DNA of 64,000 bases from the NCBI GenBank assembly GCA_964458565.1, contig CAYWJO010000001.1, positions 64,001-128,000 on the forward strand, in the 5' to 3' direction. A program made the translations under genes and the position numbers. The stretch comes from an uncultured archaeon (GTDB lineage: Archaea; Asgardarchaeota; Thorarchaeia; Thorarchaeales; Thorarchaeaceae). This document shows, in pieces, positions 1 to 12,602 of this stretch (position 1 is its first letter; every line of letters begins with the position of its first letter). The notes under the pieces are model-generated. The model was not told the DNA's origin. It ran no database searches and saw nothing but the letters and a program-made list of their open reading frames with translations.

Positions 1-527
1 TAGGGTTCACCAATTCTGAAACGTCCCTCATCAATGATCTTACCACAAGTCCTACACTTTGACCGTCCGGATTTTGCAGCTTCGATTTTCCATACTGGTT
101 CAGGTTCCTTCTCAGGGTCCTTCAAGGCATCCAAAAAATCGATTGGTTTGTGCTTGACCATCTTAGATGTCAACTTCAAAACGAATGAGTCATACTCACT
201 CGGTTTGAACAGGATTTCAATATCTCCATTTTTCAAAAGATCTTTCGTAGACATTGCAGGAGGCCACTGTGCCTTGGTCTTCATATACTCCAACATTTGC
301 ATGCTCAGAATCCGATTTGCTTCCTTTTTGGGAATCTCTCTCACTCCACTAGATTCTGCAATCCCAAACGAGGTATCCACATATTTTATGCCTTCGTCTG
401 TCACGCCTCTAGTCTTTGTCAAGACGATACTACCAATGGGAATGGTTTTTTGGTGTTTCTTGAGTTTCAACGACTTCTGGTCAATCCAGTATGCCCATTC
501 GGAATCATAATCTATTCTTTCACTCAA
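1..527 (-). CDS. Partial protein (runs off window start) containing a PARP-type zinc finger
   Basis: Not in the ORF track; translated by hand from TTG at 527: MSERIDYDSEWAYW...WKIEAAKSGRSKCRTCGKIIDEGRFRIGEP, which fits the zf-PARP pattern (ExAKSGRSxCxxCxxxIxxGxxRIG). Confidence 0.8.
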   Translation of the reverse strand, partial: MSERIDYDSEWAYWIDQKSLKLKKHQKTIPIGSIVLTKTRGVTDEGIKYVDTSFGIAESSGVREIPKKEANRILSMQMLEYMKTKAQWPPAMSTKDLLKNGDIEILFKPSEYDSFVLKLTSKMVKHKPIDFLDALKDPEKEPEPVWKIEAAKSGRSKCRTCGKIIDEGRFRIGEP

Positions 528-570
528 TGCGATTCACTCGGTCTATTAGACTGTAGTAAAACAGTAGAAT

Positions 571-987
571 CTATTTTTCTAACAGAGTACGAAAGATATT
601 GTGATGGTCCTCTTCATCAAGTAGTATGCCTTCGAATAGTTTTTTTGTAACATAGTCCTTTTCTTCAAGCGCTTTTTCTATGATACTCTTATAGAAGTCG
701 ATTGTTTCTTCTTCAGCCATCATATCATTAGTAATCATTTGATCAGGTGTGTCACCAACGGTGATTTTTGCAGGATTAGTTGTAGGAATCCCTCCAAGAT
801 AATCTACTCTTTCAGCGATACTCTCAGCATGCTTCATCTCTTCTATTGCAACTTTTTTCAATTCTTCTGCAATAGCGAGATGATCAAAACCATAAATCCG
901 AACATGTTGCCACATGTACTGGATACTGACTTGGATTTCCAGGCTTATTGCTTTGTTTAACATCTCAATCAGTTGTTTAGAAACCAA
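571..987 (-). CDS. Ferritin-like / bacterioferritin-family protein
   Basis: Di-iron motifs EEMKH and DEEDHH; four-helix-bundle size; GGAGG RBS before the TTG start. Confidence 0.85.
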   Translation of the reverse strand: MVSKQLIEMLNKAISLEIQVSIQYMWQHVRIYGFDHLAIAEELKKVAIEEMKHAESIAERVDYLGGIPTTNPAKITVGDTPDQMITNDMMAEEETIDFYKSIIEKALEEKDYVTKKLFEGILLDEEDHHNIFRTLLEK

Positions 988-1106
988 CGCTAAACCTCCA
1001 TCGATGCATTATGTCACCCTTTCTTTATTAAATCAGCTATCTTTGTTTTGTAAAAATCACTCTCAGTACTCGGTCAACCGATGAGAGCGATGGATAGAAA
1101 TGAATC

Positions 1107-2759
1107 CTAGATCTTTGAGCGATATTTACGACGTAAGGTAGGTGATATCTCTGGACTGACGAAATCAGGATCCTCTGATTTATCGATGGATGGTTCATCC
1201 ATAGAATCATCTCTCATCAAAGATGATATCCGGTATCTCCAGAAGATGATGTAACATACAATGAATATTGACAATGCGAAGACTAAACCGATTACCATAT
1301 GAGTTGGACTCAGAAATGAAAGATCAGGCCCATCCTCTGCAATGGAGGCTGGTACTATCTTGAATCCTTCGTTGAGATAATTGATGAGTGTATGAGCAGC
1401 AATTGGTCCCATTAGACTTTTCTCTTCAGAGAACTTGACATACCACACACTGAACAGACCACCTAATATTCCACTGAAGGCGACCTTTACAAAAGCCTCA
1501 CTTGCTGGAAAAATACCCGTTTTCACAAAATCTTGAATAGGCCATGCAATATGCCAGAATCCAAAGATAATTGCCGCAGCAACTATAGCTCTATTGATTC
1601 CAAAACGCTCTTTGAAACCATGATATGTGAGACCGCGAAAATAGGTCTCTTCAAAGATCGCATTGATGAAGAATAATGCGAAATTGTATACAATGAGAAA
1701 GGAATCCATCGCAATAGTGAATTGAGCAGCGACACTAGAATCTAATAGTCCTGTATAGATGACAGTTGAAACAATATTCACCAGGAAGTACTCAAAAACA
1801 GCGAAGCATATTCCTATCAATACTAATGCTCTCAAATGGAATGTGGTCAATCCTAGTACAGGTTCGAATTCGTGATGCCGTAGATACCAGAAGATACCAA
1901 GGAGAACTAAAACCGAGAGGATCTTACTAGGCATGACATTGATTACGGTCTCATCGACATTCCAGATGTAGATGTCAATCTCACGAAAGATATAGAATAC
2001 CGGCAAAAGGAGAAGTGCTAGTGAAAGAAGACTACTACTTGCTACGCGATTCTTTACTCTAGAGACAGAAGAATCTAGGGTTTCGGACGGCCTTACTGTC
2101 TTTTGTCTTCTAAACCAAGGATTACTTAGCGCCAGCCCTGCAATCACAGTGGATACGCCGCGAATAATATGAGCGATGAATGCAAGCCCTTGTGTCTGGA
2201 GCGGAATAAGCACTAATTGACTAATTATCATGAGGACCATTGAGAAAACCATGATATCACTGCGAACTTCTTTGAGACGTCCCGTTCTCCAAGTGACAGC
2301 AAACATAGCTGTCAAAGCTAAAATAACTATCAAAACAAGGACTATGATTAGTGTCATGATAATTTGCTCAGAAGGACCAAATGTACTGACAGAGATGGCA
2401 TAGAGAGATTCTCCTAAAAGAATCTGGCGATGTCTATGTTTGATACGATATGCCCAGATATCTAACAGAACGATAGACATTGGAAATACGCTCAACCACA
2501 CCGAAAATGCTCTGATTTTGAAGATTTCAAGTGTATTGGGAATTAATCCCTGACTTATCGAGAAAAGAATGATTGGATTAATTGCAGCAAACAGAAAGGA
2601 TAATCCAAAGGCAAGCGGGAGATCTGTGGATAGACGATTTTCTTGCCGTTTCCAAAGTAAAAGCAAGTAAGCTCCAACAATAATGCTAACGATTATTGAA
2701 ACCAAGTTAGCAGCATCACCAAGAAGATAATCAAGGCCGATTTGTAGCAAATTCTTCAC
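1107..2759 (-). CDS. Multi-TM protein with C-terminal CPBP (Rce1/Abi CAAX-type) intramembrane protease domain
   Basis: FEETYFRG (EExxxR), FGFWH (FxxxH) and AHTLIN (HxxxN) motifs; extra N-terminal block of about 7 TM helices. Confidence 0.75.
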   Translation of the reverse strand: MKNLLQIGLDYLLGDAANLVSIIVSIIVGAYLLLLWKRQENRLSTDLPLAFGLSFLFAAINPIILFSISQGLIPNTLEIFKIRAFSVWLSVFPMSIVLLDIWAYRIKHRHRQILLGESLYAISVSTFGPSEQIIMTLIIVLVLIVILALTAMFAVTWRTGRLKEVRSDIMVFSMVLMIISQLVLIPLQTQGLAFIAHIIRGVSTVIAGLALSNPWFRRQKTVRPSETLDSSVSRVKNRVASSSLLSLALLLLPVFYIFREIDIYIWNVDETVINVMPSKILSVLVLLGIFWYLRHHEFEPVLGLTTFHLRALVLIGICFAVFEYFLVNIVSTVIYTGLLDSSVAAQFTIAMDSFLIVYNFALFFINAIFEETYFRGLTYHGFKERFGINRAIVAAAIIFGFWHIAWPIQDFVKTGIFPASEAFVKVAFSGILGGLFSVWYVKFSEEKSLMGPIAAHTLINYLNEGFKIVPASIAEDGPDLSFLSPTHMVIGLVFALSIFIVCYIIFWRYRISSLMRDDSMDEPSIDKSEDPDFVSPEISPTLRRKYRSKI

Positions 2760-2906
2760 ATACCTGTTTATTCAAACTACACTTCCGTCGTTTTCTTCGG
2801 TATTAAACACCACAAAAACTCGGAAAATTAAGGAGGGGTTAATAGGCGCAGGAATTATATGAAGGTACGAACATCTAGTTTCTTGTATAAATTAGGAGGA
2901 TAACAA

Positions 2907-3344
2907 GTGGCAGAAATACCCACACCAACTGGTTACTCATCTCAAGCGAAATCTAGACCACTAGGTATAACAATTCTAGCAATCCTCATGATTCTGGGAG
3001 GTCTTCTAAACCTCATGGGAATCAGCGGATCATTCTACTATACGCCCGTATATGGAATTTACACCGCAGTATCAGGCGTGCTAGGACTTATACTTGGAAT
3101 TGCTATGTGGCAATTGATTCCATGGGCTAGAAAGGCTGCAATACTCTGGTATATAATCAGTTTACTCATATCAGCAGTTCTGGTTTTTTACCTCGGAGCA
3201 ATCATCGATACAATATTGCCAGGTCTTGGGACGATGACAGCTATGATTTCAATAATACCCTCACTAGTGATAGGTTTAATCATCATCCTCTACCTCAATT
3301 CAGGTGGAGTGAAGGCGGCGTTTCAGGAAGTAGGTGGCTGGTAG
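2907..3344 (+). CDS. Small 4-TM membrane protein
   Basis: RPLGITILAIL N-terminal motif; four hydrophobic segments; GGAGG RBS. Confidence 0.7.
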   Translation: MAEIPTPTGYSSQAKSRPLGITILAILMILGGLLNLMGISGSFYYTPVYGIYTAVSGVLGLILGIAMWQLIPWARKAAILWYIISLLISAVLVFYLGAIIDTILPGLGTMTAMISIIPSLVIGLIIILYLNSGGVKAAFQEVGGW

Positions 3345-3366
3345 AGTCTAAATATTGAACAATATT

Positions 3367-3399
3367 GAGGGGTCAGTGACCCCTCGAAGTTTTTTTTTT
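3367..3399 (+). terminator. Hairpin plus T-tract terminator
   Basis: gaggggtc-agt-gacccctc stem followed by a T10 run. Confidence 0.75.
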
Positions 3400-3473
3400 A
3401 ACCCGAATGAGATTAATAGTGGATAGTAAAATAGATACTCAATTAACATAATGTAAGAATTGGGGGATTAACG

Positions 3474-3959
3474 TTGTATTCAGAGCAATTCGAGATTCCT
3501 AATGCAAGCATGGAAGAAGTAAAGGACAGAGTAAAATATTGGCTCTCTTCGTTTCAAGGCGCAGAATATCTAATGGAAGTTGTATCTGAGAGACACGTAA
3601 AGATATCCAAAACAAAACATGACCTAAAGATATGTGCGTATGGTTGTATTGTCTACATTATATCAATAGCAGCACTGCCATTCATTGTATTTCCTATGGT
3701 TACGTCCCCTGCTACAGCTCTAACCATGATCTTCACCTACATGCTCGTAATCCTCTTGGTATTGCCAATATTCATTGGATTATTTTGTTTGAAACCCAAT
3801 AAGGCAGAATTTGATGTCAGATTCAGTATGGAATACCCGATTAGAGTGATGATTGTGGCATCCGGAAATATGTTGAAGGATTCCATGTATGATTATGATG
3901 GCTTTAAGGAGGCACTCAATCCAAGCGGGTTTGTTGGAGGACCCGGACTCTCATCCTAG
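3474..3959 (+). CDS. Hypothetical 2-TM membrane protein
   Basis: 161-aa ORF with two central hydrophobic helices. Confidence 0.6.
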   Translation: MYSEQFEIPNASMEEVKDRVKYWLSSFQGAEYLMEVVSERHVKISKTKHDLKICAYGCIVYIISIAALPFIVFPMVTSPATALTMIFTYMLVILLVLPIFIGLFCLKPNKAEFDVRFSMEYPIRVMIVASGNMLKDSMYDYDGFKEALNPSGFVGGPGLSS

Positions 3960-4069
3960 ATGTTCATTACATTCCTCAACAGGTAGTACAGAAGAAATAT
4001 AAAACAAACAAATTCTCCGCATGCAGTACTCACTGGACTATGATTGTAAATTGTTGGAGATTTAGATAG

Positions 4070-4660
4070 ATGAGTGAATCAAGAAATGTCGTAATTGTCA
4101 CTGGGATCCCCGGTGTTGGTAAGACAACTGTCATAAACACAGCTGTAGATATGGTAAAGAAAGAACAGGGGGAGGATGTTCTTGTCCTAAACTTTGGAAC
4201 GGAGATGTTTGAAGTAGCATTGGAAAAGGGATTTGTGACAGATCGGGACCAGCTTCGCAAGATGCCTACTGCTAAGCAGCGGGATGTGCAGAAGATGGCA
4301 GGTGAAAGTATTGCAGAGAAAGCAAAATCTGCAAGAGTCATTGTTGATACTCATACACTTATCCAGACAGAAAATGGGTTTCTCATTGGTCTTCCGGAGT
4401 GGGTTGTACGTGCGATTTCTCCTAAGACAGTAGTATTGGTAGAAGCAGACCCAGCTAATATAGCAAATCGAAGATCAACAGATGAAACACGTACAAGGGA
4501 TGAACAGCTGACCGAAGATATAAGAACCCATCAAGAGATGTGTAGAGGTGCTGCAGTCACAGTTGGTACTCTTACAGGTTCAACAGCAAGAATAATCAAG
4601 AACCGTGATGGTCAAGTAGAGGAAGCTGCAAGACAATTAGCAGACACTTTGAAGGAGTGA
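4070..4660 (+). CDS. adkA: Archaeal adenylate kinase
   Basis: GIPGVGKTT P-loop; RDQLRK, IVDTH and GLP motifs; expected context upstream of DUF106-L34e-cmk-L14e. Confidence 0.95.
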   Translation: MSESRNVVIVTGIPGVGKTTVINTAVDMVKKEQGEDVLVLNFGTEMFEVALEKGFVTDRDQLRKMPTAKQRDVQKMAGESIAEKAKSARVIVDTHTLIQTENGFLIGLPEWVVRAISPKTVVLVEADPANIANRRSTDETRTRDEQLTEDIRTHQEMCRGAAVTVGTLTGSTARIIKNRDGQVEEAARQLADTLKE

Positions 4661-4664
4661 AATA

Positions 4665-5210
4665 TTGGTGCAAGATCTGATTGCGAATTTCGTTGAATTA
4701 ATGAGATGGCCTCCTTTCGCAGGCTTCTTTGTAGTCTTTGTGTCTGTTTCAATATCGTCAATGAGCAATCTTGCTATGAAACGCTTTGCTGATATGAGAA
4801 GACTTCGACGATATCAAACTGAGATAAAGCAGTATCAAGAGATGCAAAAGAAGGCTCAAGAGAGCCAGAATGAAAAGCTCTTGAGAAAAGTAAAGCGTAG
4901 AAAGGCATACATCGATCGAATACAGAGAGAGATGATGACAACACGCTGCAAACCACAGATTATTTTCATTATCCCATTTATGCTGATATTCGCTTTACTC
5001 AGGGGACTATATACTGGAGCTGATGGAATAAGTCAAATCATTGTAGCTGTTATTCCGTTTAATCTCCATAATCTTATCCCACTTCAAAGCTTCGGTCTTG
5101 GAGTTATTGTTCCGGGAGGATTCGGTCTTTATTTCTGGCCATTCTATTTCCTTGCTGGACTAGGACTCTCGTCTATACTGCAGAGAATTATGGGAACGCA
5201 GATAATGTAG
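4665..5210 (+). CDS. DUF106 / EMC3-TMCO1 (Oxa1 superfamily) membrane protein
   Basis: TM, coiled coil, TM, TM layout with a C-terminal WxFYF segment; conserved position after adk. Confidence 0.85.
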   Translation: MVQDLIANFVELMRWPPFAGFFVVFVSVSISSMSNLAMKRFADMRRLRRYQTEIKQYQEMQKKAQESQNEKLLRKVKRRKAYIDRIQREMMTTRCKPQIIFIIPFMLIFALLRGLYTGADGISQIIVAVIPFNLHNLIPLQSFGLGVIVPGGFGLYFWPFYFLAGLGLSSILQRIMGTQIM

Positions 5211-5290
5211 ATAAGCTGAAAGCGTTCAACCGCTCGCCTTTTAAGGGCAAGCCATAGGGACCTTTGAGAGAATACGTGAAGGTGCAATAT

Positions 5291-5566
5291 ATGCCAAGAC
5301 CTGGTCAATTAACAAGAAGTAGGGCAAATCGCACAGTGAAAACTCCAGGTGGAAGAACAACGGTCCATCGTAGAAAGATCTACACAACTCAAGGAACATG
5401 TGCAATCTCAGGTGCTAAGTTACAATTACCAAGAAGCGCTAATCAAGAACTTCGAATGACTTCTAGCCATTCAGCAAGAAGACCAAACCGTCCATACGGT
5501 GGATATGCTTCATCAAAAGCTACACGTCGAAGCATTATCAGAGCTACAAGAAAGCTGCACAAGTAA
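5291..5566 (+). CDS. rpl34e: 50S ribosomal protein L34e
   Basis: MPRP...VKTPGGR...RRPNRPYGG; ATG at 5291 preferred over upstream TTG. Confidence 0.9.
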   Translation: MPRPGQLTRSRANRTVKTPGGRTTVHRRKIYTTQGTCAISGAKLQLPRSANQELRMTSSHSARRPNRPYGGYASSKATRRSIIRATRKLHK

Positions 5567-5643
5567 TGCCATGACATTTATACGATGCTCTTTAGAGAAG
5601 TAAAGTACATTAATTGGCAGAGAGAGCAACATAGGCGACTGAT

Positions 5644-6180
5644 ATGAAACACGTGATAACCCTTGGCGGGTTGCATGGGACAGGCAAGAGCTCAGTTGCT
5701 GATAAAATTGCTCGAGAGTTCAACTTGCGAAGAACATCTGCAGGAATGATATTCAGGCAGATGGCAAAAGATAGAGGAATGACATTACAAGAATTTAGTG
5801 AATTTGCAGAGGAGAATGAAGATATTGACAGAGAACTTGATTCTACTCTTGCACGCGAAGCTGAGAAAGGTAAGATTGTTATTGACGGACAATTAGCAGC
5901 ATGGATGGCGAAAGACAATGCTGATTTTAGAATCATGTTGACTGCTCCTGAGAATGTGAGAGTCAGACGGATCGCTGAAAGAGATAGTGTTGATTTTGAG
6001 TTTGCAAGAAATGAAACATTGAACCGTGAGGAAAGCGAGAGAGCTAGATATATGGAATACTATCAGGTCGATATCACGGATTTGTCGATTTACGATCTTA
6101 TTATAAATACGGACAAATTCGCACTTGATGATGTTATAGAAATCATCTTTACTGCTGTTCGAATTCTTTGGAAAGCATAA
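5644..6180 (+). CDS. cmk: Cytidylate kinase (archaeal)
   Basis: GLHGTGKS P-loop; SAGMIFRQMA and YDLIINT motifs. Confidence 0.93.
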   Translation: MKHVITLGGLHGTGKSSVADKIAREFNLRRTSAGMIFRQMAKDRGMTLQEFSEFAEENEDIDRELDSTLAREAEKGKIVIDGQLAAWMAKDNADFRIMLTAPENVRVRRIAERDSVDFEFARNETLNREESERARYMEYYQVDITDLSIYDLIINTDKFALDDVIEIIFTAVRILWKA

Positions 6181-6309
6181 AGGGAGCAAGCGTAACGCTC
6201 ATATTGAGATTCTATTGTGCTTGGAACAATACTCCCTAACCAGAGGAATGGTATTCTGAGGCGACTTAGAGTAATCAGTTTGACCATGGGAAGGCGAGGT
6301 GTAGATAAC

Positions 6310-6585
6310 ATGAAGTTATATGAAACTGGAAGAGTCTGTGTAAAGACAACAGGCCGTGAAACAGGTAGCTACTGCGTCATAGTAGGAGAGAAGGATGGAA
6401 GCTTTGTAGAAATCACTGGTCCAAAGCATATAAGTGGAGTAAGGAGACGGCCCTGTAATATCCGTCATCTTGAACCACTAGAGATTAAGATTGAGATATC
6501 CAGTGGTGCTGATGATGATGCAGTACTTAAGGCTCTTGAAAATGCGGGATTGATTGAGAAATTCAGGTCAAAGGTCAGACTCTGA
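6310..6585 (+). CDS. rpl14e: 50S ribosomal protein L14e
   Basis: GRVCVKTTGRETG...GVRRRPCNIRHLEP; GAGGTG RBS before ATG 6310. Confidence 0.92.
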   Translation: MKLYETGRVCVKTTGRETGSYCVIVGEKDGSFVEITGPKHISGVRRRPCNIRHLEPLEIKIEISSGADDDAVLKALENAGLIEKFRSKVRL

Positions 6586-6609
6586 TAACCCTGTTTCTGA
6601 GGTGGTTAA

Positions 6610-7617
6610 ATGCTAGGGCGATTGCCTGCAGATCGACCCGATGACACAATTGTCTTAGTAAGTGATACGACAACTAATCCCGATTTCGGGTTTTCTGATC
6701 TTGATTCATTACCAATACAATATCTACTCAGAAATGGCGTGATATGTCTCGACAAACCAGCAGGACCAACAAGCCATGAAGTTGCGACATGGGTGAGAAA
6801 AATCCTGAAGTCTGATCGCGTCGGTCATGGAGGGACTCTTGATCCTGCTGTGACTGGAATATTACCAATGGGTATTGGAGATGGGACGAAGGTTATGCAG
6901 GCGTTATTACCAGCAGGCAAGGTGTACGTTTGCTTAATGGAGCTTCATGGTCCAGCAGATGAGTCAGATCTAAGGAGCGTAATTGCTGAATTTGTGGGAA
7001 AAATCTATCAAAAGCCCCCACTTCGATCGGCCGTCAAGCGTGTTCTTCGGGTCAGGGAAATTTACTATATTGATATTCTTGAAATTAAAGGTAGATTTGT
7101 ATTATTTAATGTTGGATGTCAGGCAGGTACATACATCCGGAAACTCTGCTTCGATATCGGAGAGGCAATTGGCCAAGGAGCGCATATGAGAGAACTACGA
7201 CGAACACGAGTTGGTAATTTCTTAGAAGATGAACATCTGTGTTCGTTGTATGATTTGAAGGATGCGTATGAGTTCTATATTGAGGATGGAGACGAAACAG
7301 AATTACGTAGATACCTTCTGCCAATAGAATTCGCATTGAAGCATCTCCCTATCATGAAACTTCGGGATTCTGCAGTAGATGCAATCTGTCATGGTGCAGA
7401 TCTTGCGGCTAGCGGTGTTGTGGAAATCTCTTCAGATATTATGAAAGGAGACCTCGTAGCTTTGAAAACCCTCAAAAATGAGGGGATAGCTATTGCGCGG
7501 AGTGAGCATCCAGCTTCCAAGATTTCCACGATGAGGAGCGGGATTGTAGCTAAGATTGAACGCGTGTTCATGGAAAGAGGACGATATCCACCTATGTGGA
7601 AAAAGAAAGAGGCGTAA
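6610..7617 (+). CDS. cbf5: H/ACA RNP pseudouridine synthase Cbf5
   Basis: DKPAGPTSHEV, GHGGTLDP (catalytic Asp), GTYIRKLC and a C-terminal PUA domain; uninterrupted. Confidence 0.96.
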   Translation: MLGRLPADRPDDTIVLVSDTTTNPDFGFSDLDSLPIQYLLRNGVICLDKPAGPTSHEVATWVRKILKSDRVGHGGTLDPAVTGILPMGIGDGTKVMQALLPAGKVYVCLMELHGPADESDLRSVIAEFVGKIYQKPPLRSAVKRVLRVREIYYIDILEIKGRFVLFNVGCQAGTYIRKLCFDIGEAIGQGAHMRELRRTRVGNFLEDEHLCSLYDLKDAYEFYIEDGDETELRRYLLPIEFALKHLPIMKLRDSAVDAICHGADLAASGVVEISSDIMKGDLVALKTLKNEGIAIARSEHPASKISTMRSGIVAKIERVFMERGRYPPMWKKKEA

Positions 7618-7632
7618 TTTGAAGCACAAGAG

Positions 7633-7642
7633 ATTATTTATA
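7633..7642 (+). promoter_or_regulatory. TATA box for the remnant RNase P RNA gene (copy A)
   Basis: attatttata about 25 nt upstream of the P1 5' strand at 7662. Confidence 0.5.
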
Positions 7643-7661
7643 GAAAAATAGTAATGAATTG

Positions 7662-7747
7662 ATGGCTCTGGAGCAGAAGCGCAACTGACGGTACTCATCT
7701 TTAGATGAGAGCTGAGGAAACTCCCGACTACTTGTCGACGCTGGTCC
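7662..7747 (+). pseudogene. rnpB: 5' remnant of an RNase P RNA gene (copy A)
   Basis: 7681-7729 matches 8117-8165 at 47 of 49 nt, including GAGGAAACTCC (CR-I); 7662-7676 is complementary to 10481-10495. Confidence 0.8.
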
Positions 7748-8099
7748 TGTGACCTCTTCCTATTCAAAGGAATAATATCCATGGATGAGAGAAAAGAAGA
7801 TTGACGCGATAAGTCTTGTTGAGAGAGTCAATTGGAGTTAATGTGACACAGTATAATAACTAGTACAAAAAAAAGCGATTGCACTATACCTATTATGCAA
7901 TTCTCAAGAGCCTCCAAAAGACCTTATGTGTAGTTCTCATTACAAGTGCTCTTTATTCATATATATCAAGTATCATTTAAAGATAGCATATTCTTTCACG
8001 AAACGAACTCATTACTGAGTCGCAGAAATGCAATAGCAAGAATACATGTTGAAAATGGCATTCCCAATCCTTATCAACAAAAAAAGAGCTAATGTTGAA

Positions 8100-8442
8100 A
8101 GCCTTGGAGCGAAAGAGCAACTGACGGTACTCATCTTTTGATGAGAGCTGAGGAAGCTCCCGACTCATACCGGCACCAGTCCATTCCGGAAGGTGAGAGC
8201 CTTGCTCTGGAAACAGAAACGACACCCCCAGACAGGATTTGACAATGATACGGTGATTGAATCCGTTGAGGATCCATCTGGTCAGGATGAAACGGTCCAT
8301 CACTGGTGAGCAATCTCAAGAATACATCAATGAAGAGCCGGTCTGAGATGTAGGGTAGAGAGCATAGTTCGATGTTGCAAGCCCATTACATGGTAACGTG
8401 TCATGGGGGAACAGAATCGGGGCTACTCTTCGGACCAAGGCT
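8100..8442 (+). ncRNA. rnpB: Complete archaeal RNase P RNA (copy B)
   Basis: CR-I GAGGAAGCTCC; ACAGAAA and TGAAACG loop motifs; CR-V AACAGAATCGGGGCTA; P1 agccttgg/ccaaggct; P2 gcaac/gttgc; P4 agc(t)cccga/tcggggct. Confidence 0.92.
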
Positions 8443-8579
8443 ACATTACAACATTTAATTGAAAGTTGAGGGGTTAGGAAGTAAAATTAACCAAAGATTT
8501 CTTTTTAATGATATCATGGACAGGGACCAATGGCAAGATAAGACCGAATAACTATTTCTTAATTTAAATTAAATAAAGG

Positions 8580-9488
8580 CTATTCATTCTTATCGAAAAC
8601 AAATCCTATGTCATTGAGTCTTTTCTTAAATTTCTCCTGAATTCTCTTTACTGGAAACCTGAACTCTTTTCCATCCTTTCCGATAACTATCAAAGAACGT
8701 TGCCACTTGTCCAGTAAACCCAGAAAATCTATGACCAGGAAGATTTGTTGATCCACTTTGATTGATTCCTTTACCTCTGATGGAGGGCCATAATAGTTGT
8801 ATCCTTGTGCATTCCAAATCATTTCATATTCTTCTCGTTGTTTCGAATTTAGATATGGGATATATGGTGGTATAACTGATTTGTATTTGTTCAAAATAGT
8901 GACCTTTAGGTTGTTATATATCCACCTTTCTAATTCTAGAAGTAAGAAACCTAAATCTCCCATTACAACTCTTTGTATTGCACCAATAAAGACCATTCCT
9001 TCAGAAAGATTCTTCATATTATCTAAGAATCCCAGAATTGATTCATCATCCAATAATCTCCATTCAGCATTAACTTGGTCAATGAAAATGAATCTGTAAT
9101 TATGGGCAAAGATATTTCTAACATCCTCATATTCATCCCAGAACTTTTATGAGTACCATACACAATCCATTATTCTATGAAAGACGTCTTTCAGAAGGCT
9201 TCTCAGTTCTTCTGCAATTGCATCATCCAAACGGGAAAAGAAAGGAATTGCAAACATCCGACATATATCTTTCTCAGTAAAGGACTCTTTGCGCATTTGA
9301 TTTTCTATATGTCCTCTTTGTCCTCTAGGATCTATTAATATTGACAGTATCTTTTCCAAATTCCTCTTTCCCGATGCTGTGAATTTCCATGCTGCTGCAA
9401 TTGCGCCCTGAAAACTCTCTATAATACCCAAGACTCTAAAAATAAAGTCTGCATGGATTGCATCATACATATCCTTGTTTTTTACCAC
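8580..9488 (-). pseudogene. HEPN-motif protein gene interrupted by one in-frame TAA (9147-9149)
   Basis: ORFs 9147..9488 and 8580..9053 are in the same frame. The linker reads ...VWYS*KFWDEYEDVRNIFAHNYRF... and contains RNxxxH. Visibly more AT-rich than the flanking core genes. Confidence 0.65.
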
Positions 9489-9546
9489 ACCTCCTTTTAT
9501 TGAATCGACTTCAACATTATTTGTGATATATTGTGAATAAAACTCG

Positions 9547-10449
9547 TTGATAAGTTTGAAATATTTCTCTCGAATCTTTGAAGACCGGATTAGCGACCTA
9601 AAGAAACAGATTCATGTCCTAAAAGATGTTCGTCGTTCGGCACCACCAATCATCAAGGTAGTTGGGACTCAAGCAACATTATTGATTCCCTTCATGCCTC
9701 CGGACAAATCACTTTTGAGAACTTCACTTCGTAATCTTGGAAGAAGGACTCGTAGAGCGGGTGTGGACCGAGGTCTAAGACACTCCATGGTGGTTTCAAT
9801 AAAGAATGGTGGGAGTAGGTATTCTGAACGAATGATTGGTAAGCAGGAACTATATGAAAAGAGAGAATCTCTACGACAACGAACAAGAGTTTTGATGTCA
9901 CAGATAGCAAAGAAACGAAACAACTGGGAGAGAAAACATTCGAGACTGCAAGATCCAGCCATCATACTGAAGAAGGAAAGAGAGCTGGAGTCAGTATGGA
10001 GAAAGATCCGTCGTCTCGATAAGGAAATCTCCCATCAAGTTGCTTCTGAAACCGTCTGGTTCTGCGAGCATCTAGCCGTGAAGACGATTTATTTTGAAGA
10101 CCTCAGGACTTTTCAGGGAAAAGGGGGAATGCGAAGACACAGCTGGAACCTCTCAACAAATCTCTGGGGTCAGATGATACAGGGAGTCACCTATAGACGA
10201 CATTCGATGGGTTACAAATCGGGTGGAGTCTGGATGGTCAATCCGTATATGACTTCCCAGATATGCAGTGTGTGTGGAAAAAAGGGAATCAGAGTTCAGA
10301 ACAGAGATTCTGAGGTAGAACAGAAAGGAGGAGAGTTTTTCTACTGCCCAAGTTGTGAAACCCGACTTCAAGCAGATGTTAATGCAGCTAGGAATATTAT
10401 GAGTGTTAAAATACAAGAACCCAGTGCCGTTCCTGGGTGGACAACATAA
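9547..10449 (+). CDS. tnpB: TnpB-family RNA-guided nuclease, N-terminally truncated
   Basis: RuvC-I GVDRG, RuvC-II FEDL, zinc ribbon CSVC/CPSC and RuvC-III ADVNAARNI. The RuvC-I Asp is at about residue 74, so the N-terminal lobe appears to be missing. Confidence 0.88.
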   Translation: MISLKYFSRIFEDRISDLKKQIHVLKDVRRSAPPIIKVVGTQATLLIPFMPPDKSLLRTSLRNLGRRTRRAGVDRGLRHSMVVSIKNGGSRYSERMIGKQELYEKRESLRQRTRVLMSQIAKKRNNWERKHSRLQDPAIILKKERELESVWRKIRRLDKEISHQVASETVWFCEHLAVKTIYFEDLRTFQGKGGMRRHSWNLSTNLWGQMIQGVTYRRHSMGYKSGGVWMVNPYMTSQICSVCGKKGIRVQNRDSEVEQKGGEFFYCPSCETRLQADVNAARNIMSVKIQEPSAVPGWTT

Positions 10450-10471
10450 GTTAGTCCAATCTATAATGAAT
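9547..10471 (+). mobile_element. Right-hand remnant of an IS200/IS605- or IS607-family element
   Basis: tnpB followed by two hairpins (acccag/ctgggt at 10419-10438; ggac..gtcc at 10439-10457), then an abrupt junction to host rnpB 3' sequence at a GG dinucleotide; no tnpA or left end visible. Confidence 0.65.
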
Positions 10472-10495
10472 GGTTACTCACTGCACCAGAGCCAT
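10472..10495 (+). pseudogene. rnpB: 3' remnant of RNase P RNA copy A
   Basis: ggttactcactgcaccagagccat parallels copy B's ggctactcttcggaccaaggct; pairs 14/15 with 7662-7676; followed by a pyrimidine tract. Confidence 0.75.
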
Positions 10496-10551
10496 TCTTT
10501 CTTCCATACATAAATTAAATACATAGTAAAGTAAATTGTGAAACGAGTGCG

Positions 10552-11376
10552 ATGCAGATATGGTCATGGGGTATTCGTGGTGCTTATCTCGGATTCCTCA
10601 TTGTAGGAATAATTTTGATTATGTCTATACTCATTCTATTATGGATTAGAAAATACAGAAAAGTCACAAGAGAGTTTTCCGCCGATGATGAATGGCTCAC
10701 TGATGAAAGGATAAAGATAACGCATGGCCAGTCAACTATCCTAAAATCAGGAATCGCTACATTGCGAAATCTTGGACCATTGAAAAAGGGCGTGACTATA
10801 ATCCTATTGTGCACCCTGATATTATCAACATCATGGTTCGTATGGAATCTTCCTCTTCGTTACGACAGTGGAGATATAGAAAATGGGGATACCCGAGTGT
10901 TCATTGTAACTTCAGTGGATTTTGAAACAGGATTACTTAGTGTACGGGGAATCCACGATCAATTCCTTGATGAGCGAAGTTGCAAGCTATTTTATTTTGT
11001 TCAATATGAACCAGAGATATTTAGACCCATAAATGTAAGCCTAACTTGGAATCTAACATGCGTGTTGTTTGCAGGAGTTGCAAGTTCAGCTCAACTCCGT
11101 GTGAGTATACTTCTTTCAGATTCTGACTATGATCACATCTATCTTCGAGATGTATATAGGAGAGATGTTAATTCTGAGCGCATTGAGATTCGTGAGCATC
11201 AGGCATCAGAAGTTCACATTCCATGGTATTGCAGTCCAGGTTCAATTTATTATGTTAGTATACGTTTGTTTGTGCTTTTGGAAGGAGATTCCTCTATAGA
11301 AGGACAAATACCTGGTACATCAGGTAATTTAGTTGTAAACAACATATCAATAGAAGCAGTAGAACCAATCGAATAA
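10552..11376 (+). CDS. Hypothetical membrane-anchored protein (2 TM plus beta-rich domain)
   Basis: 274-aa ORF with two hydrophobic segments. Confidence 0.6.
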   Translation: MQIWSWGIRGAYLGFLIVGIILIMSILILLWIRKYRKVTREFSADDEWLTDERIKITHGQSTILKSGIATLRNLGPLKKGVTIILLCTLILSTSWFVWNLPLRYDSGDIENGDTRVFIVTSVDFETGLLSVRGIHDQFLDERSCKLFYFVQYEPEIFRPINVSLTWNLTCVLFAGVASSAQLRVSILLSDSDYDHIYLRDVYRRDVNSERIEIREHQASEVHIPWYCSPGSIYYVSIRLFVLLEGDSSIEGQIPGTSGNLVVNNISIEAVEPIE

Positions 11377-11504
11377 ATCAAAGGCACATTCAAAATCAGA
11401 TTCAAAACACTACTAAACAGATATTCAAAGCCAAGAGGTTTTTCCATTGTATAGAATTTTTTAAAGCAGATGAGATAGTACATTATACGTGGATGGATTA
11501 GATA

Positions 11505-11978
11505 TTGAAGGCACGATATGTCGCGGTCATCATGTTCTTAGTTGCTATATTTATACCCGAAGGCATTTCGCTTTGGGAAAGGGAATCGAGTATTGCTTTT
11601 GCAATTTATGCATCATTCTGGGGATTAAGATATGACCCCATTTTCGGAGTTGAAATCTTATTTGTGGATATTCAAGCACTCATACTTGCAGTTCCATGTT
11701 TCTTTGGATTGAGTTTTATTTATGCAATACAGGTAGTCAGATATTACACTCATAAAGTAGGACATGAAAGCACTATTACCATCGGAATATTGAGTATGAT
11801 TCCAATAATGGTGATAAAAATCGGTTGGGGGCATTTTGGCGATTTGTTTAGTCACTTCAATACTATCATTTTACCACTACCAGTATTATTCATCATTGGA
11901 ATTGTTCTGATGAAACTAAGAACGGATTTAGACTCATTAGCAATCTGGAATGCAATTGAACCAGTTGGGAAAAACTAA
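11505..11978 (+). CDS. Hypothetical 4-TM membrane protein
   Basis: Hydrophobic helices with a C-terminal LPLPVLFIIG segment. Confidence 0.6.
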   Translation: MKARYVAVIMFLVAIFIPEGISLWERESSIAFAIYASFWGLRYDPIFGVEILFVDIQALILAVPCFFGLSFIYAIQVVRYYTHKVGHESTITIGILSMIPIMVIKIGWGHFGDLFSHFNTIILPLPVLFIIGIVLMKLRTDLDSLAIWNAIEPVGKN

Positions 11979-11979
11979 A

Positions 11980-12531
11980 TTAAATCTCTAAGTCTGACGC
12001 ATCTGATTTTGTGTGTTCTTCCATAATCTCTTTCTGCACTGCAACAATCTCAGTGCTGTCCTTGCATGCTACATAAGAATCCAGCCACTCTCTATTCAAA
12101 GTAAGAAAGGAAGGACCCCATTTGAAGACAGACATGATGTCCTTTGCCTCTTCATAGTATTCAAGGATATACAATGCTGCTGCGAGTGCCTCAGCTGTGG
12201 ATAATTTGATTGGTTTGTATGTGTTGATTGGATTGCCTGCAAGCAAGTATGGAAGTGCTCGTTGCTCACCACGTTTGGAGTTCTGGAAAATCTCTTCTGC
12301 TTGCTTCCATGAACAGTCAAGTGCAACCAGACCGGATTTTTTCACAGCCAATCTATCAGCATTAGAGAATGCAACCTCTGAAACTGGATTCAGGACAACT
12401 GCACCACGTGGAATCCTTCGCATATCACTAAGAAGTTCAGCCCGTTTCATCGAAATGAGCCTGATACCTGTGCACTTTTTTGGATCACATTGAGATGCAT
12501 GGTATACAAAGACTCTGAGCATTTCGTTCAC
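11980..12531 (-). CDS. tsr3: 16S rRNA aminocarboxypropyltransferase Tsr3
   Basis: QCDPKKCTG, LDCSW, RALPYLLAGNP and KLSTAEALAAA motifs. Confidence 0.95.
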   Translation of the reverse strand: MNEMLRVFVYHASQCDPKKCTGIRLISMKRAELLSDMRRIPRGAVVLNPVSEVAFSNADRLAVKKSGLVALDCSWKQAEEIFQNSKRGEQRALPYLLAGNPINTYKPIKLSTAEALAAALYILEYYEEAKDIMSVFKWGPSFLTLNREWLDSYVACKDSTEIVAVQKEIMEEHTKSDASDLEI

Positions 12532-12602
12532 TGACCTGACACTTCAACAACCAAATCAATAGATTTCTATGTTATCATGTTTGTGGGAATAGTGAAATCA
12601 AA

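Follow-up and report, generated by a model that had tools for sequence, protein, structure and literature searches.

Ribonuclease P (RNase P) RNA, the product of rnpB, is among the few universal ribozymes, and its gene is commonly taken to be a single-copy marker with strictly vertical inheritance. The subject of this study is the rnpB locus in a 64,000-nucleotide (nt) stretch of an uncultured archaeon of the Thorarchaeaceae (contig CAYWJO010000001.1, positions 64,001 to 128,000 of the forward strand), hereafter called the window, in which a complete rnpB (copy B) lies between the two surviving ends of another rnpB (gene A). The reading that we favor, and regard as probable, is that an essential ribozyme gene was replaced in situ by a xenologous copy and that the displaced gene then decayed. 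The closest described process is the displacement of protein genes: Omelchenko et al. (2003, in Genome Biology) are said to have described mosaic operons and xenologous gene displacement in situ. As in that process, an essential gene appears to have been replaced at its own locus by a homologue from another lineage, with the neighboring genes unmoved. The present case differs in that the gene encodes a catalytic RNA instead of a protein and in that the nesting recurs in another genus. Because the two ends of the displaced gene survive around the newcomer, the replacement event is directly readable.

Three other systems resemble the locus in part. Genomic islands and prophages are reportedly integrated, in the model of Williams from 2002, in the 3' ends of transfer RNA (tRNA) and transfer-messenger RNA (tmRNA) genes. 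Like these islands, the insert in the window has a structural-RNA gene as its docking site, with the displaced 3' piece at the far side of the insert and function apparently restored by the incoming sequence, and relatives carry arrays of tail copies. On the other hand, the incoming DNA has supplied the gene in full and not just a matching 3' end, the left break lies at position 100 of the rnpB profile, and the displaced tail adjoins a transposon end and not an attachment (att) core. The tail of B differs from that of A at 8 of 20 positions, so that, together with the position of the left break, the two do not constitute a shared att core, and recombinases characteristic of integrase islands were found neither in the open reading frames (ORFs) of positions 7753 to 10471 nor in the insertions of two related genomes (G071 and G060). 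The second system is the IS200/IS605 group, whose TnpB transposons insert on the 3' side of a short target motif, which also serves the nuclease as its target-adjacent motif (TAM); TnpB takes its guide from the sequence that flanks the right end of the element. The third is the synthetic Cleave-and-Rescue gene drive, reportedly constructed by Oberhofer, Ivy, and Hay in 2019. The locus resembles it in layout only, in that a nuclease guide matching the resident essential allele stands beside a cleavage-resistant copy; the nuclease gene is now broken and there is no sign that it cut rnpB, so the likeness is hypothetical. In the papers searched, nothing was found on rnpB as a site of integration in archaea or on TnpB linked to RNase P RNA.

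The order L14e-cbf5-rnpB-tsr3, with tsr3 on the opposite strand, is found in 17 of 18 genomes of the same family, in which rnpB usually starts approximately 50 to 70 nt past cbf5 and tsr3 ends approximately 20 nt past rnpB. In the window, the left neighbor is cbf5 (6610 to 7617, plus strand), which encodes the H/ACA pseudouridine synthase with the Pfam domains TruB_N, TruB_C_2, PUA, and DKCLD, and whose protein has almost exclusively Thorarchaeota metagenome-assembled genomes (MAGs) among its named relatives. The right neighbor is tsr3 (11980 to 12531, minus strand; Pfam Ribo_biogen_C, E = 7.6e-44); both genes are also identified by synteny. The interval between them is 4.4 kb, vs. approximately 0.45 kb in relatives. 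A profile for nhmmer was built from the rnpB genes of 19 relatives (18 of the same family and 1 of a sister family) with B excluded, and its search of 7000 to 12600 gives exactly three matches, namely, copy B and the two pieces of A, designated A5' and A3'. These matches, and the pairing of the A halves given below, confirm what an earlier reading of the letters by themselves (the sequence-only reading) had proposed, namely, that a complete rnpB is nested within the remains of another.

A5' (7658 to 7752, plus strand; profile positions 5 to 100, E = 1.1e-23) is the 5' quarter of an rnpB of the common N type, with the 5' strand of helix P1, P2, P3, conserved region I (CR-I), and the start of P5-P7, and it occupies the native rnpB slot behind cbf5. 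In the alignment its homology to relatives ends past CCTGTG(A). A TTTATA box was read from the sequence at 7637 to 7642 (plus strand), 22 nt ahead of the P1 of A, and relatives have a TTTTTAT-type box at the same distance from rnpB, in agreement with the earlier statement that A follows cbf5 directly with a TATA box of its own. A3' comprises the 3' strand of P1 and a T-rich trailer and is matched by the profile at 10472 to 10499 (positions 340 to 367, E = 0.004). Its identification as an rnpB piece stands, while its start, previously placed at 10472, had to be corrected: the GGT at 10472 to 10474 is also the conserved last triplet of the transposon right end described below (19 of 20 copies), and the part that certainly belongs to rnpB is therefore 10475 to 10499 (plus strand; 10472 to 10499 if the ambiguous GGT is counted). 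Nucleotides 7662 to 7676 of A5' pair with 10481 to 10495 of A3' at 14 of 15 positions, as first noticed by eye, while the P1 of B pairs with itself at 12 of 14 positions and the A-B cross pairings, one register each, reach 5/15 and 6/15. Between the two pieces approximately 240 profile positions of A are missing, close to the 230 nt estimated before. Since profile positions 5 to 100 and 340 to 367 alone remain, A is a gene remnant and not a complete RNase P RNA gene. Rfam cmscan over 7600 to 8100 and 8440 to 10560 gave no RNase P match at E values up to 10; nhmmer was chosen for the pieces because cmscan has no model for internally truncated ones. The native slot and the retained TATA box support the identification of A as the old resident gene.

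Copy B (8100 to 8442, plus strand) is a complete rnpB of a second type, the M type. The Infernal-type search suggested for B returns a full archaeal RNase P RNA (RF00373) at 8105 to 8437 with 142.2 bits, against a gathering score of 84, over model positions 1 to 288 and without truncation, and the profile built without B matches 8101 to 8447 (E = 3.5e-94). B is the sole complete rnpB in the 3.7-Mb assembly. Fifteen salt-marsh metatranscriptome runs contain about one-tenth of a 3.3-kb stretch of the locus, which is approximately the length of B. In the two runs that were examined, one contig consists of 8109 to 8432 with Illumina adapter sequence on both sides, and a second contig spans 8024 to 8432, both with zero mismatches; B thus appears to be present in RNA libraries as a discrete molecule, possibly with a 5' leader. 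These are contigs and not raw reads, so that their ends and levels are mere hints and carry-over of DNA is possible. No contig of these two runs lies over A5', the TnpB stump, or the transposon right end, although such a lack of cover is no evidence of silence. The longer contig reaches 76 nt upstream of the P1 of B (8024 to 8099). B does not have the TTTTTAT-type box that is seen 25 to 30 nt upstream of other rnpB genes, and a TATA-like TTTAAA is located upstream of it at 7976 to 7981. The transcript of B may carry a 5' leader that needs trimming and that starts from this TTTAAA or by read-through from the promoter of A.

Two recurrent types of rnpB, N and M, were distinguished among 47 sequences of the family. 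The N type has the P1 strands GGCTCTGG/CCAGAGCC, while the M type has GGCCTTGG/CCAAGGCC, ACT-CATACCG past CR-I, and GAGCAATCTCAAGAATACATC. M-type genes include the cbf5-adjacent copies in three genomes of genus g8 (G037, G038, and G041) and the inner copy in G071. Sixteen diagnostic columns that separate six M-type genes from 20 genes of genus g6, nearly all of them N-type, were chosen without the use of B; B has the M state at 13 of the 16, a count that leans toward this result because three of the six M-type genes had been picked as the best matches of B, and A has the N state at all 8 of the columns that it covers. Over the columns that A covers, A and B are 73.5% identical, which is lower than the identity of A to 12 genomes of other genera (up to 83.5%). 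The 5' strands of P1 in A5' and B agree at just 13 of 20 positions. Helix P4 reads GAAAC/GGTTAC in A and GAAGC/GGCTAC in B, and throughout the family a G in the 5' strand goes with a C in the 3' strand (13 of 13 sequences) and an A with a T (25 of 31). The differences in P1 and the covariation in P4 noted earlier are thus both present, and the incoming copy is of a lineage different from that of the resident, as in xenologous displacement. In the maximum likelihood tree, B is on a long branch (0.31) in an unsupported group with other M-type genes. As judged from the sequences, the source of B cannot be named beyond an M-type lineage of the same family.

The exception to this divergence is a tract of the P2-P3-CR-I region in which A (7681 to 7729, plus strand) and B (8117 to 8165) are identical at 47 of 49 positions, as previously counted. 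The P3 hairpin of B is nearly identical to that of A and very different from the P3 hairpins of other M-type genes, for which reason the tract is probably the product of gene conversion between co-resident copies rather than of shared descent. Such an apparent uptake of the host P3 hairpin by the newcomer would offer a handle on the coadaptation of RNA and protein in the multisubunit RNase P. The same tract could instead point to a local duplication of rnpB, with fast divergence of B, decay of the other copy, and no horizontal transfer, an account to which the long branch of B and a weak likeness of the 18 nt upstream of both copies also lend themselves. Outside the tract, however, A is nearer to genes of other genera than to B, and B has the derived M-type states of the genes of other genera. 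A tandem duplicate, moreover, would not put the 3' end of A beyond B, and the shell and inner copies of the comparable locus in G071 fall in different, supported parts of the tree. We consider a local duplication very unlikely, and the earlier statement that B is not a recent tandem duplicate of A agrees with these data.

A nested gene might also be an artifact in which two strains' rnpB alleles were joined in a chimeric metagenome assembly. The MAG that holds the window has 93 contigs in 3.7 Mb, with a completeness of 93% and a contamination of 5%, and one Joint Genome Institute (JGI) assembly breaks exactly at the 5' end of B: the two contigs of 3300031585 cover 6554 to 8097 and, with three mismatches, 8100 to 11649. 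Nevertheless, in SRR9710542, a run that may be the source sample of the window itself, a Logan contig is 100% identical across positions 1 to 11099, a JGI contig of 3300031364 spans 6444 to 8898, and contigs of run X4 bridge all of the junctions (7752, 8099, and 10471). Contigs that two assemblers built from at least three other samples have this layout and these junctions, and some of the samples, but not all, may be the source of the MAG. A chimera is therefore extremely improbable.

The nesting of rnpB is not confined to the window. In G071, of genus g6, the 5' part of an rnpB (profile positions 10 to approximately 299) lies beside cbf5 and is followed by a 743-amino-acid ORF, a complete M-type rnpB, an inverted TnpB stump, a 1222-amino-acid ORF, and, 7 kb away from the 5' part, a 3' fragment with profile positions 305 to 367. 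The shell 5' part groups with the subclade of G071 itself (support 98/94), and the subclade-specific P1 AGCTC...GAGCT is common to this part and the distant 3' fragment. Shell and inner copy share a long tract of the first half that is identical in the alignment and resembles a conversion tract. It thus appears that rnpB was swapped between Asgard genera, with the old ends left as witnesses, and a second genus shows the event again; the case is real, recurrent, and a variation on known processes. In contig C224 of G060, cbf5 is followed by an M-type gene and, 5 nt later, by an N-type tail. The rnpB loci inspected, approximately 46 in number, are mostly simple.

Additional N-type tails are found in G067, G051, G058, and contig C26 of G060, either in the rnpB-tsr3 interval or behind rnpB. 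Counting G060 and G071 with two extra copies each, different single genes stand between the 3' tail copies of these genomes, as would be expected if the rnpB tail were a landing pad for gene cassettes that are moved by a trans-acting recombinase, as at tRNA and tmRNA genes, and B were a cassette with a whole gene; the nesting would then be a side effect of repeated 3'-end insertion. This account fits the window less well: its left break at profile position 100 is outside the tail, B and the cargo have no tail copy between them, and the sole tail copy adjoins the transposon end. The starts of the tail copies also vary widely, from position 274 to 340, and the insertions of G071 and G060 gave no match to an integrase or any other family of recombinases. 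We regard the landing pad as quite unlikely for the window. The inserts of G071 and G060 and that of the window have no homologous ORFs in common. As a separate observation, the gap between cbf5 and rnpB in contig C26 of G060, approximately 60 nt elsewhere, holds a GNAT acetyltransferase gene and a 136-amino-acid ORF (L056:1848-2973), which indicates that insertions occur on the 5' side of rnpB as well.

Between B and A3' there is the 3' part of a transposon. The ORF at 9547 to 10449 (plus strand) encodes the C-terminal 300 residues, with the RuvC/TNB part, of a TnpB-family RNA-guided nuclease and matches the Pfam family Cas12f1-like_TNB (PF07282; E = 1.5e-13), weakly OrfB_IS605, and the NCBIfam family guided_TnpB with 69 bits, below the cut-off of 100, over profile positions 195 to 387 of 389. 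DNA homologues at approximately 70% identity occur in many genomes of the family, and this subfamily has a single copy in the genome of the window. Full-length homologues have approximately 701 to 713 residues, of which 469 to 686 form the RuvC/TNB part; the alignment of the stump begins at approximately residue 402, so that approximately 400 N-terminal residues are missing, the window retains the last 43% of the gene, and the nuclease is not intact. The right end of the element (10420 to 10474, plus strand) comprises the hairpin CCCAG...CTGGG (10420 to 10437), a second stem, and the terminal ...ATAATGAAT-GGT. Copies elsewhere have two stems with compensatory changes past the stop codon (10 copies aligned) and end in ...ACAATGAAC-GGT; 19 of 20 further copies end in ...AAC-GGT and then diverge.

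The target of the element was deduced from an empty site and not from the left flank. For a copy in G044 (contig C3), homology to the orthologous site in G010 (contig C80) starts right after the GGT, and the empty site reads ...AAAAGGGT before the junction, ending in GGGT. The junction in the window reconstructs to ...TTGGGGT/TACTC in an N-type gene and the junction of genus g6 to ...GTAGGGT/AGGAAGC. All three insertions thus follow GGGT, although there are just three sites and GGT is also the last triplet of the element itself. In the RuvC/TNB domain, the conserved hairpin right end at a fixed base, the apparent insertion past GGGT, and the lack of a visible target duplication, the element resembles IS200/IS605 transposons. 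It differs from them in its approximately 701-residue protein, with approximately 460 N-terminal residues without a Pfam family, and in a conserved divergent partner gene of >525 residues, and the copy in the window is a stump with an essential RNA gene as its target. The partner has no Pfam family across its first 339 residues. As the element runs on through this gene, its left end was not reached, and no Y1 TnpA was seen. Since the right end adjoins A3' at a GGGT site, at least one further separate insertion and one deletion are needed to account for the locus, and the earlier supposition that B arrived with AT-rich cargo as one block is not supported: the interval between B and A3' is made up of a broken accessory gene and the C-terminal 43% of the TnpB gene.

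The 20 nt past the right end, 10475 to 10494, are the tail of A and lie in the guide position of the TnpB right end. Where an intact N-type allele would have GGGT and the full target, B has GGGC and differs at 8 of 20 target positions; the changed base is the P4 base that covaries with CR-I (AAC..GTT vs. AGC..GCT). Among 31 right ends surveyed, 4 adjoin rnpB sequence, all within approximately 3 kb of an rnpB gene or fragment. These are the end in the window (profile position 343), that in G062:C40 (positions 273 to 369 attached), that in G071:C7 (positions 273 to 297, inverted, 22 nt from the M-type gene), and that in G060:C26 (positions 273 to 293, inverted, beside a tail copy). A pattern search for junctions of the right end with rnpB position 273 in 86 genomes found exact ones in G062 and G071 only, along with a degraded junction in G060. 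The junction is the same in the three g6 cases, which may go back to a single old event, so that two independent hits are counted. Given one copy of the subfamily in the genome of the window and an rnpB that makes up approximately one ten-thousandth of a genome, the link is poorly explained by chance. The nuclease may have had a causal role, the element may prefer a structured and highly transcribed gene, or insertions may persist for long in a tolerated "junkyard."

In the causal case, the TnpB element would itself have driven the replacement, either by homing into an essential RNA gene or as a naturally occurring counterpart of cleave and rescue. An insertion past GGGT in the tail of A on one chromosome copy of a polyploid cell would have given the nuclease a guide that matches every intact A allele; cutting and repair by copying would then have spread the lethal insertion, and the survivors would have been cells that gained a resistant rnpB, B. 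The break would have favored the capture of B and the loss of the middle of A, and the nuclease would later have decayed. The placement of A3' exactly at the guide position of a conserved right end is consistent with this sequence of steps, as are the three GGGT sites (that in G044, empty in G010, and rnpB profile positions 273 and 343), the difference between the N-type allele and B at motif and target, the position of B at the locus, and the 4 of 31 right ends beside rnpB. In G071 the surviving full copy is again of the M type and mismatches the adjacent guide-position sequence. Against this, both TnpB genes beside M-type copies are stumps (300 and approximately 126 residues), for which reason no activity is claimed; the three g6 junctions at the same position reduce the hits to perhaps two; the left end and any TnpA were not reached; the 27 other right-end copies have unrelated flanks; and nothing shows cutting, or the entry of B because of cutting. 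That TnpB drove the replacement in the window is, in our estimate, unlikely. The general form of the idea, in which the transposon homes to rnpB and resistant alleles (GGGT to GGGC via a compensated P4 pair, with a changed target) are gained at the cut locus, is doubtful to a slightly greater degree; on this view, the same chemistry of single-strand transposition may also have given rise to the tail copies of rnpB in Asgard genomes. The idea is possibly far more novel than the replacement itself. The GGGT motif, the old allele at the guide position, and a replacement without the motif make testable the question of whether RNA-guided transposon nucleases drive the turnover of essential RNA genes; if so, the nested gene would be the fossil of a natural cleave-and-rescue episode.

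The favored reading remains replacement in situ, without a causal part for the nuclease. From an ancestral locus of cbf5, an N-type rnpB (gene A), and, farther on, tsr3, the course of events may have been as follows. DNA with the complete M-type gene B, from another lineage of the same family, would have landed within A or at the A locus; B would have assumed the function and A become dispensable; and the two, while co-resident, would have exchanged the short P2-P3-CR-I tract by gene conversion. A transposon of the approximately 701-residue TnpB family would then have inserted in the tail of A directly past GGGT, which placed its right end against the last 21 to 24 nt of A. One or more later deletions presumably removed the middle of A (approximately 240 nt) and the left-hand 60%, approximately, of the transposon, and the accessory gene within the interval has since been broken. 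Of the in situ replacement proposed in the sequence-only reading, the old resident A and the different lineage of B stand, and G071 provides a second instance, while the arrival with cargo as one block is not supported.

Several observations weigh against this reading. The M group is not a supported clade and forms one clade in 37% of the bootstrap trees, so that the term xenologous rests on shared derived states and not on a resolved clade, and the branch of B is long. B also scores lowest in Rfam among the 31 genomes first compared, and its flanks are unlike those of other M-type genes. Searches of positions 7753 to 10471 with Pfam, PHROG, and NCBIfam did not reveal a vehicle for B, such as a recombinase or a transposase. 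A3' could in principle have come with the transposon stump, as the short rnpB pieces in G071 and G060 seem to have done. A second species of the genus is absent from the genome set, and an intact A-type locus was never seen: one metagenome scan gave only a contig of the same strain, and the nearest cbf5 (81%) is on a 1.7-kb contig that ends 21 nt past the gene.

Such loci also have a practical consequence, as they break metagenome assemblies and rnpB may seem absent or duplicated. The sole rnpB detected in G062 ends at the end of contig C50 (L114), 3 nt past GGGT, and the remaining rnpB (profile positions 273 to 369) stands behind a TnpB right end at the start of another contig, C40 (L112); the explanation is either a gene that part of the population has in interrupted form or a 97-nt repeat that broke the assembly. 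In G073 and G050, which are 91% complete and have several copies of this TnpB family each, no rnpB was found in the whole genomes, possibly because the locus failed to assemble for the same reason.

The remaining features of the interval are less informative. Spacer X (7753 to 8098, 346 nt, no strand assigned) is AT-rich and probably contains the promoter or leader of B; it gave no rnpB signal by nhmmer, and neither the rest of the genome nor any of 86 related genomes has a match to it. A cbf5 remnant in this spacer was considered and not accepted, as tblastn of 18 cbf5 proteins against 7740 to 8110 gave weak matches only (best E = 0.003 for the 371-nt target) and in a frame that conflicts with the C-terminal match seen by eye. 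The view of the spacer as a decayed rnpB, suggested by an 18-nt likeness of 8030 to 8047 to the P10/11-P12 region of B, was not backed by the profile search. The accessory pseudogene (8580 to 9488, minus strand) is in three frame pieces (9147 to 9488, 9023 to 9163, and 8580 to 9053), and intact relatives have open frames of approximately 330 to 410 residues. It belongs to no Pfam, PHROG, or NCBIfam family, and its homologues, present in 8 of 85 other genomes of the family, were in no case on contigs where rnpB was found. Just past its 3' end, a 58-nt AT-rich imperfect palindrome (8537 to 8594, arms 77% complementary) may be a bidirectional terminator.

Outside the nesting, between A3' and tsr3, are two membrane-protein-like ORFs of 274 and 157 residues (10552 to 11978, plus strand). 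The longer one (10552 to 11376) is 32% identical to a paralogue that lies close to the end of this contig (G000:C1:254382-254864), and the shorter one has a weak homologue in G008, also between rnpB and tsr3. Among the TnpB homologues, those at L047:612-2714 (minus strand), L043, and L046 have the approximately 460 N-terminal residues without a Pfam family. The partner gene (L061:1-1017, minus strand; L057:427-1200, plus strand) is always paired with TnpB, and its product starts with M-A/T-R-x-R/K-G-R-P; many Thorarchaeota have several copies of the pair per genome, and the two genes may form an undescribed two-gene TnpB element. In contig C24 of G071, an ORF that precedes another TnpB copy has a resolvase motif and resembles serine recombinases (L064:1-345), which indicates that IS607-type elements coexist with the large TnpB family.

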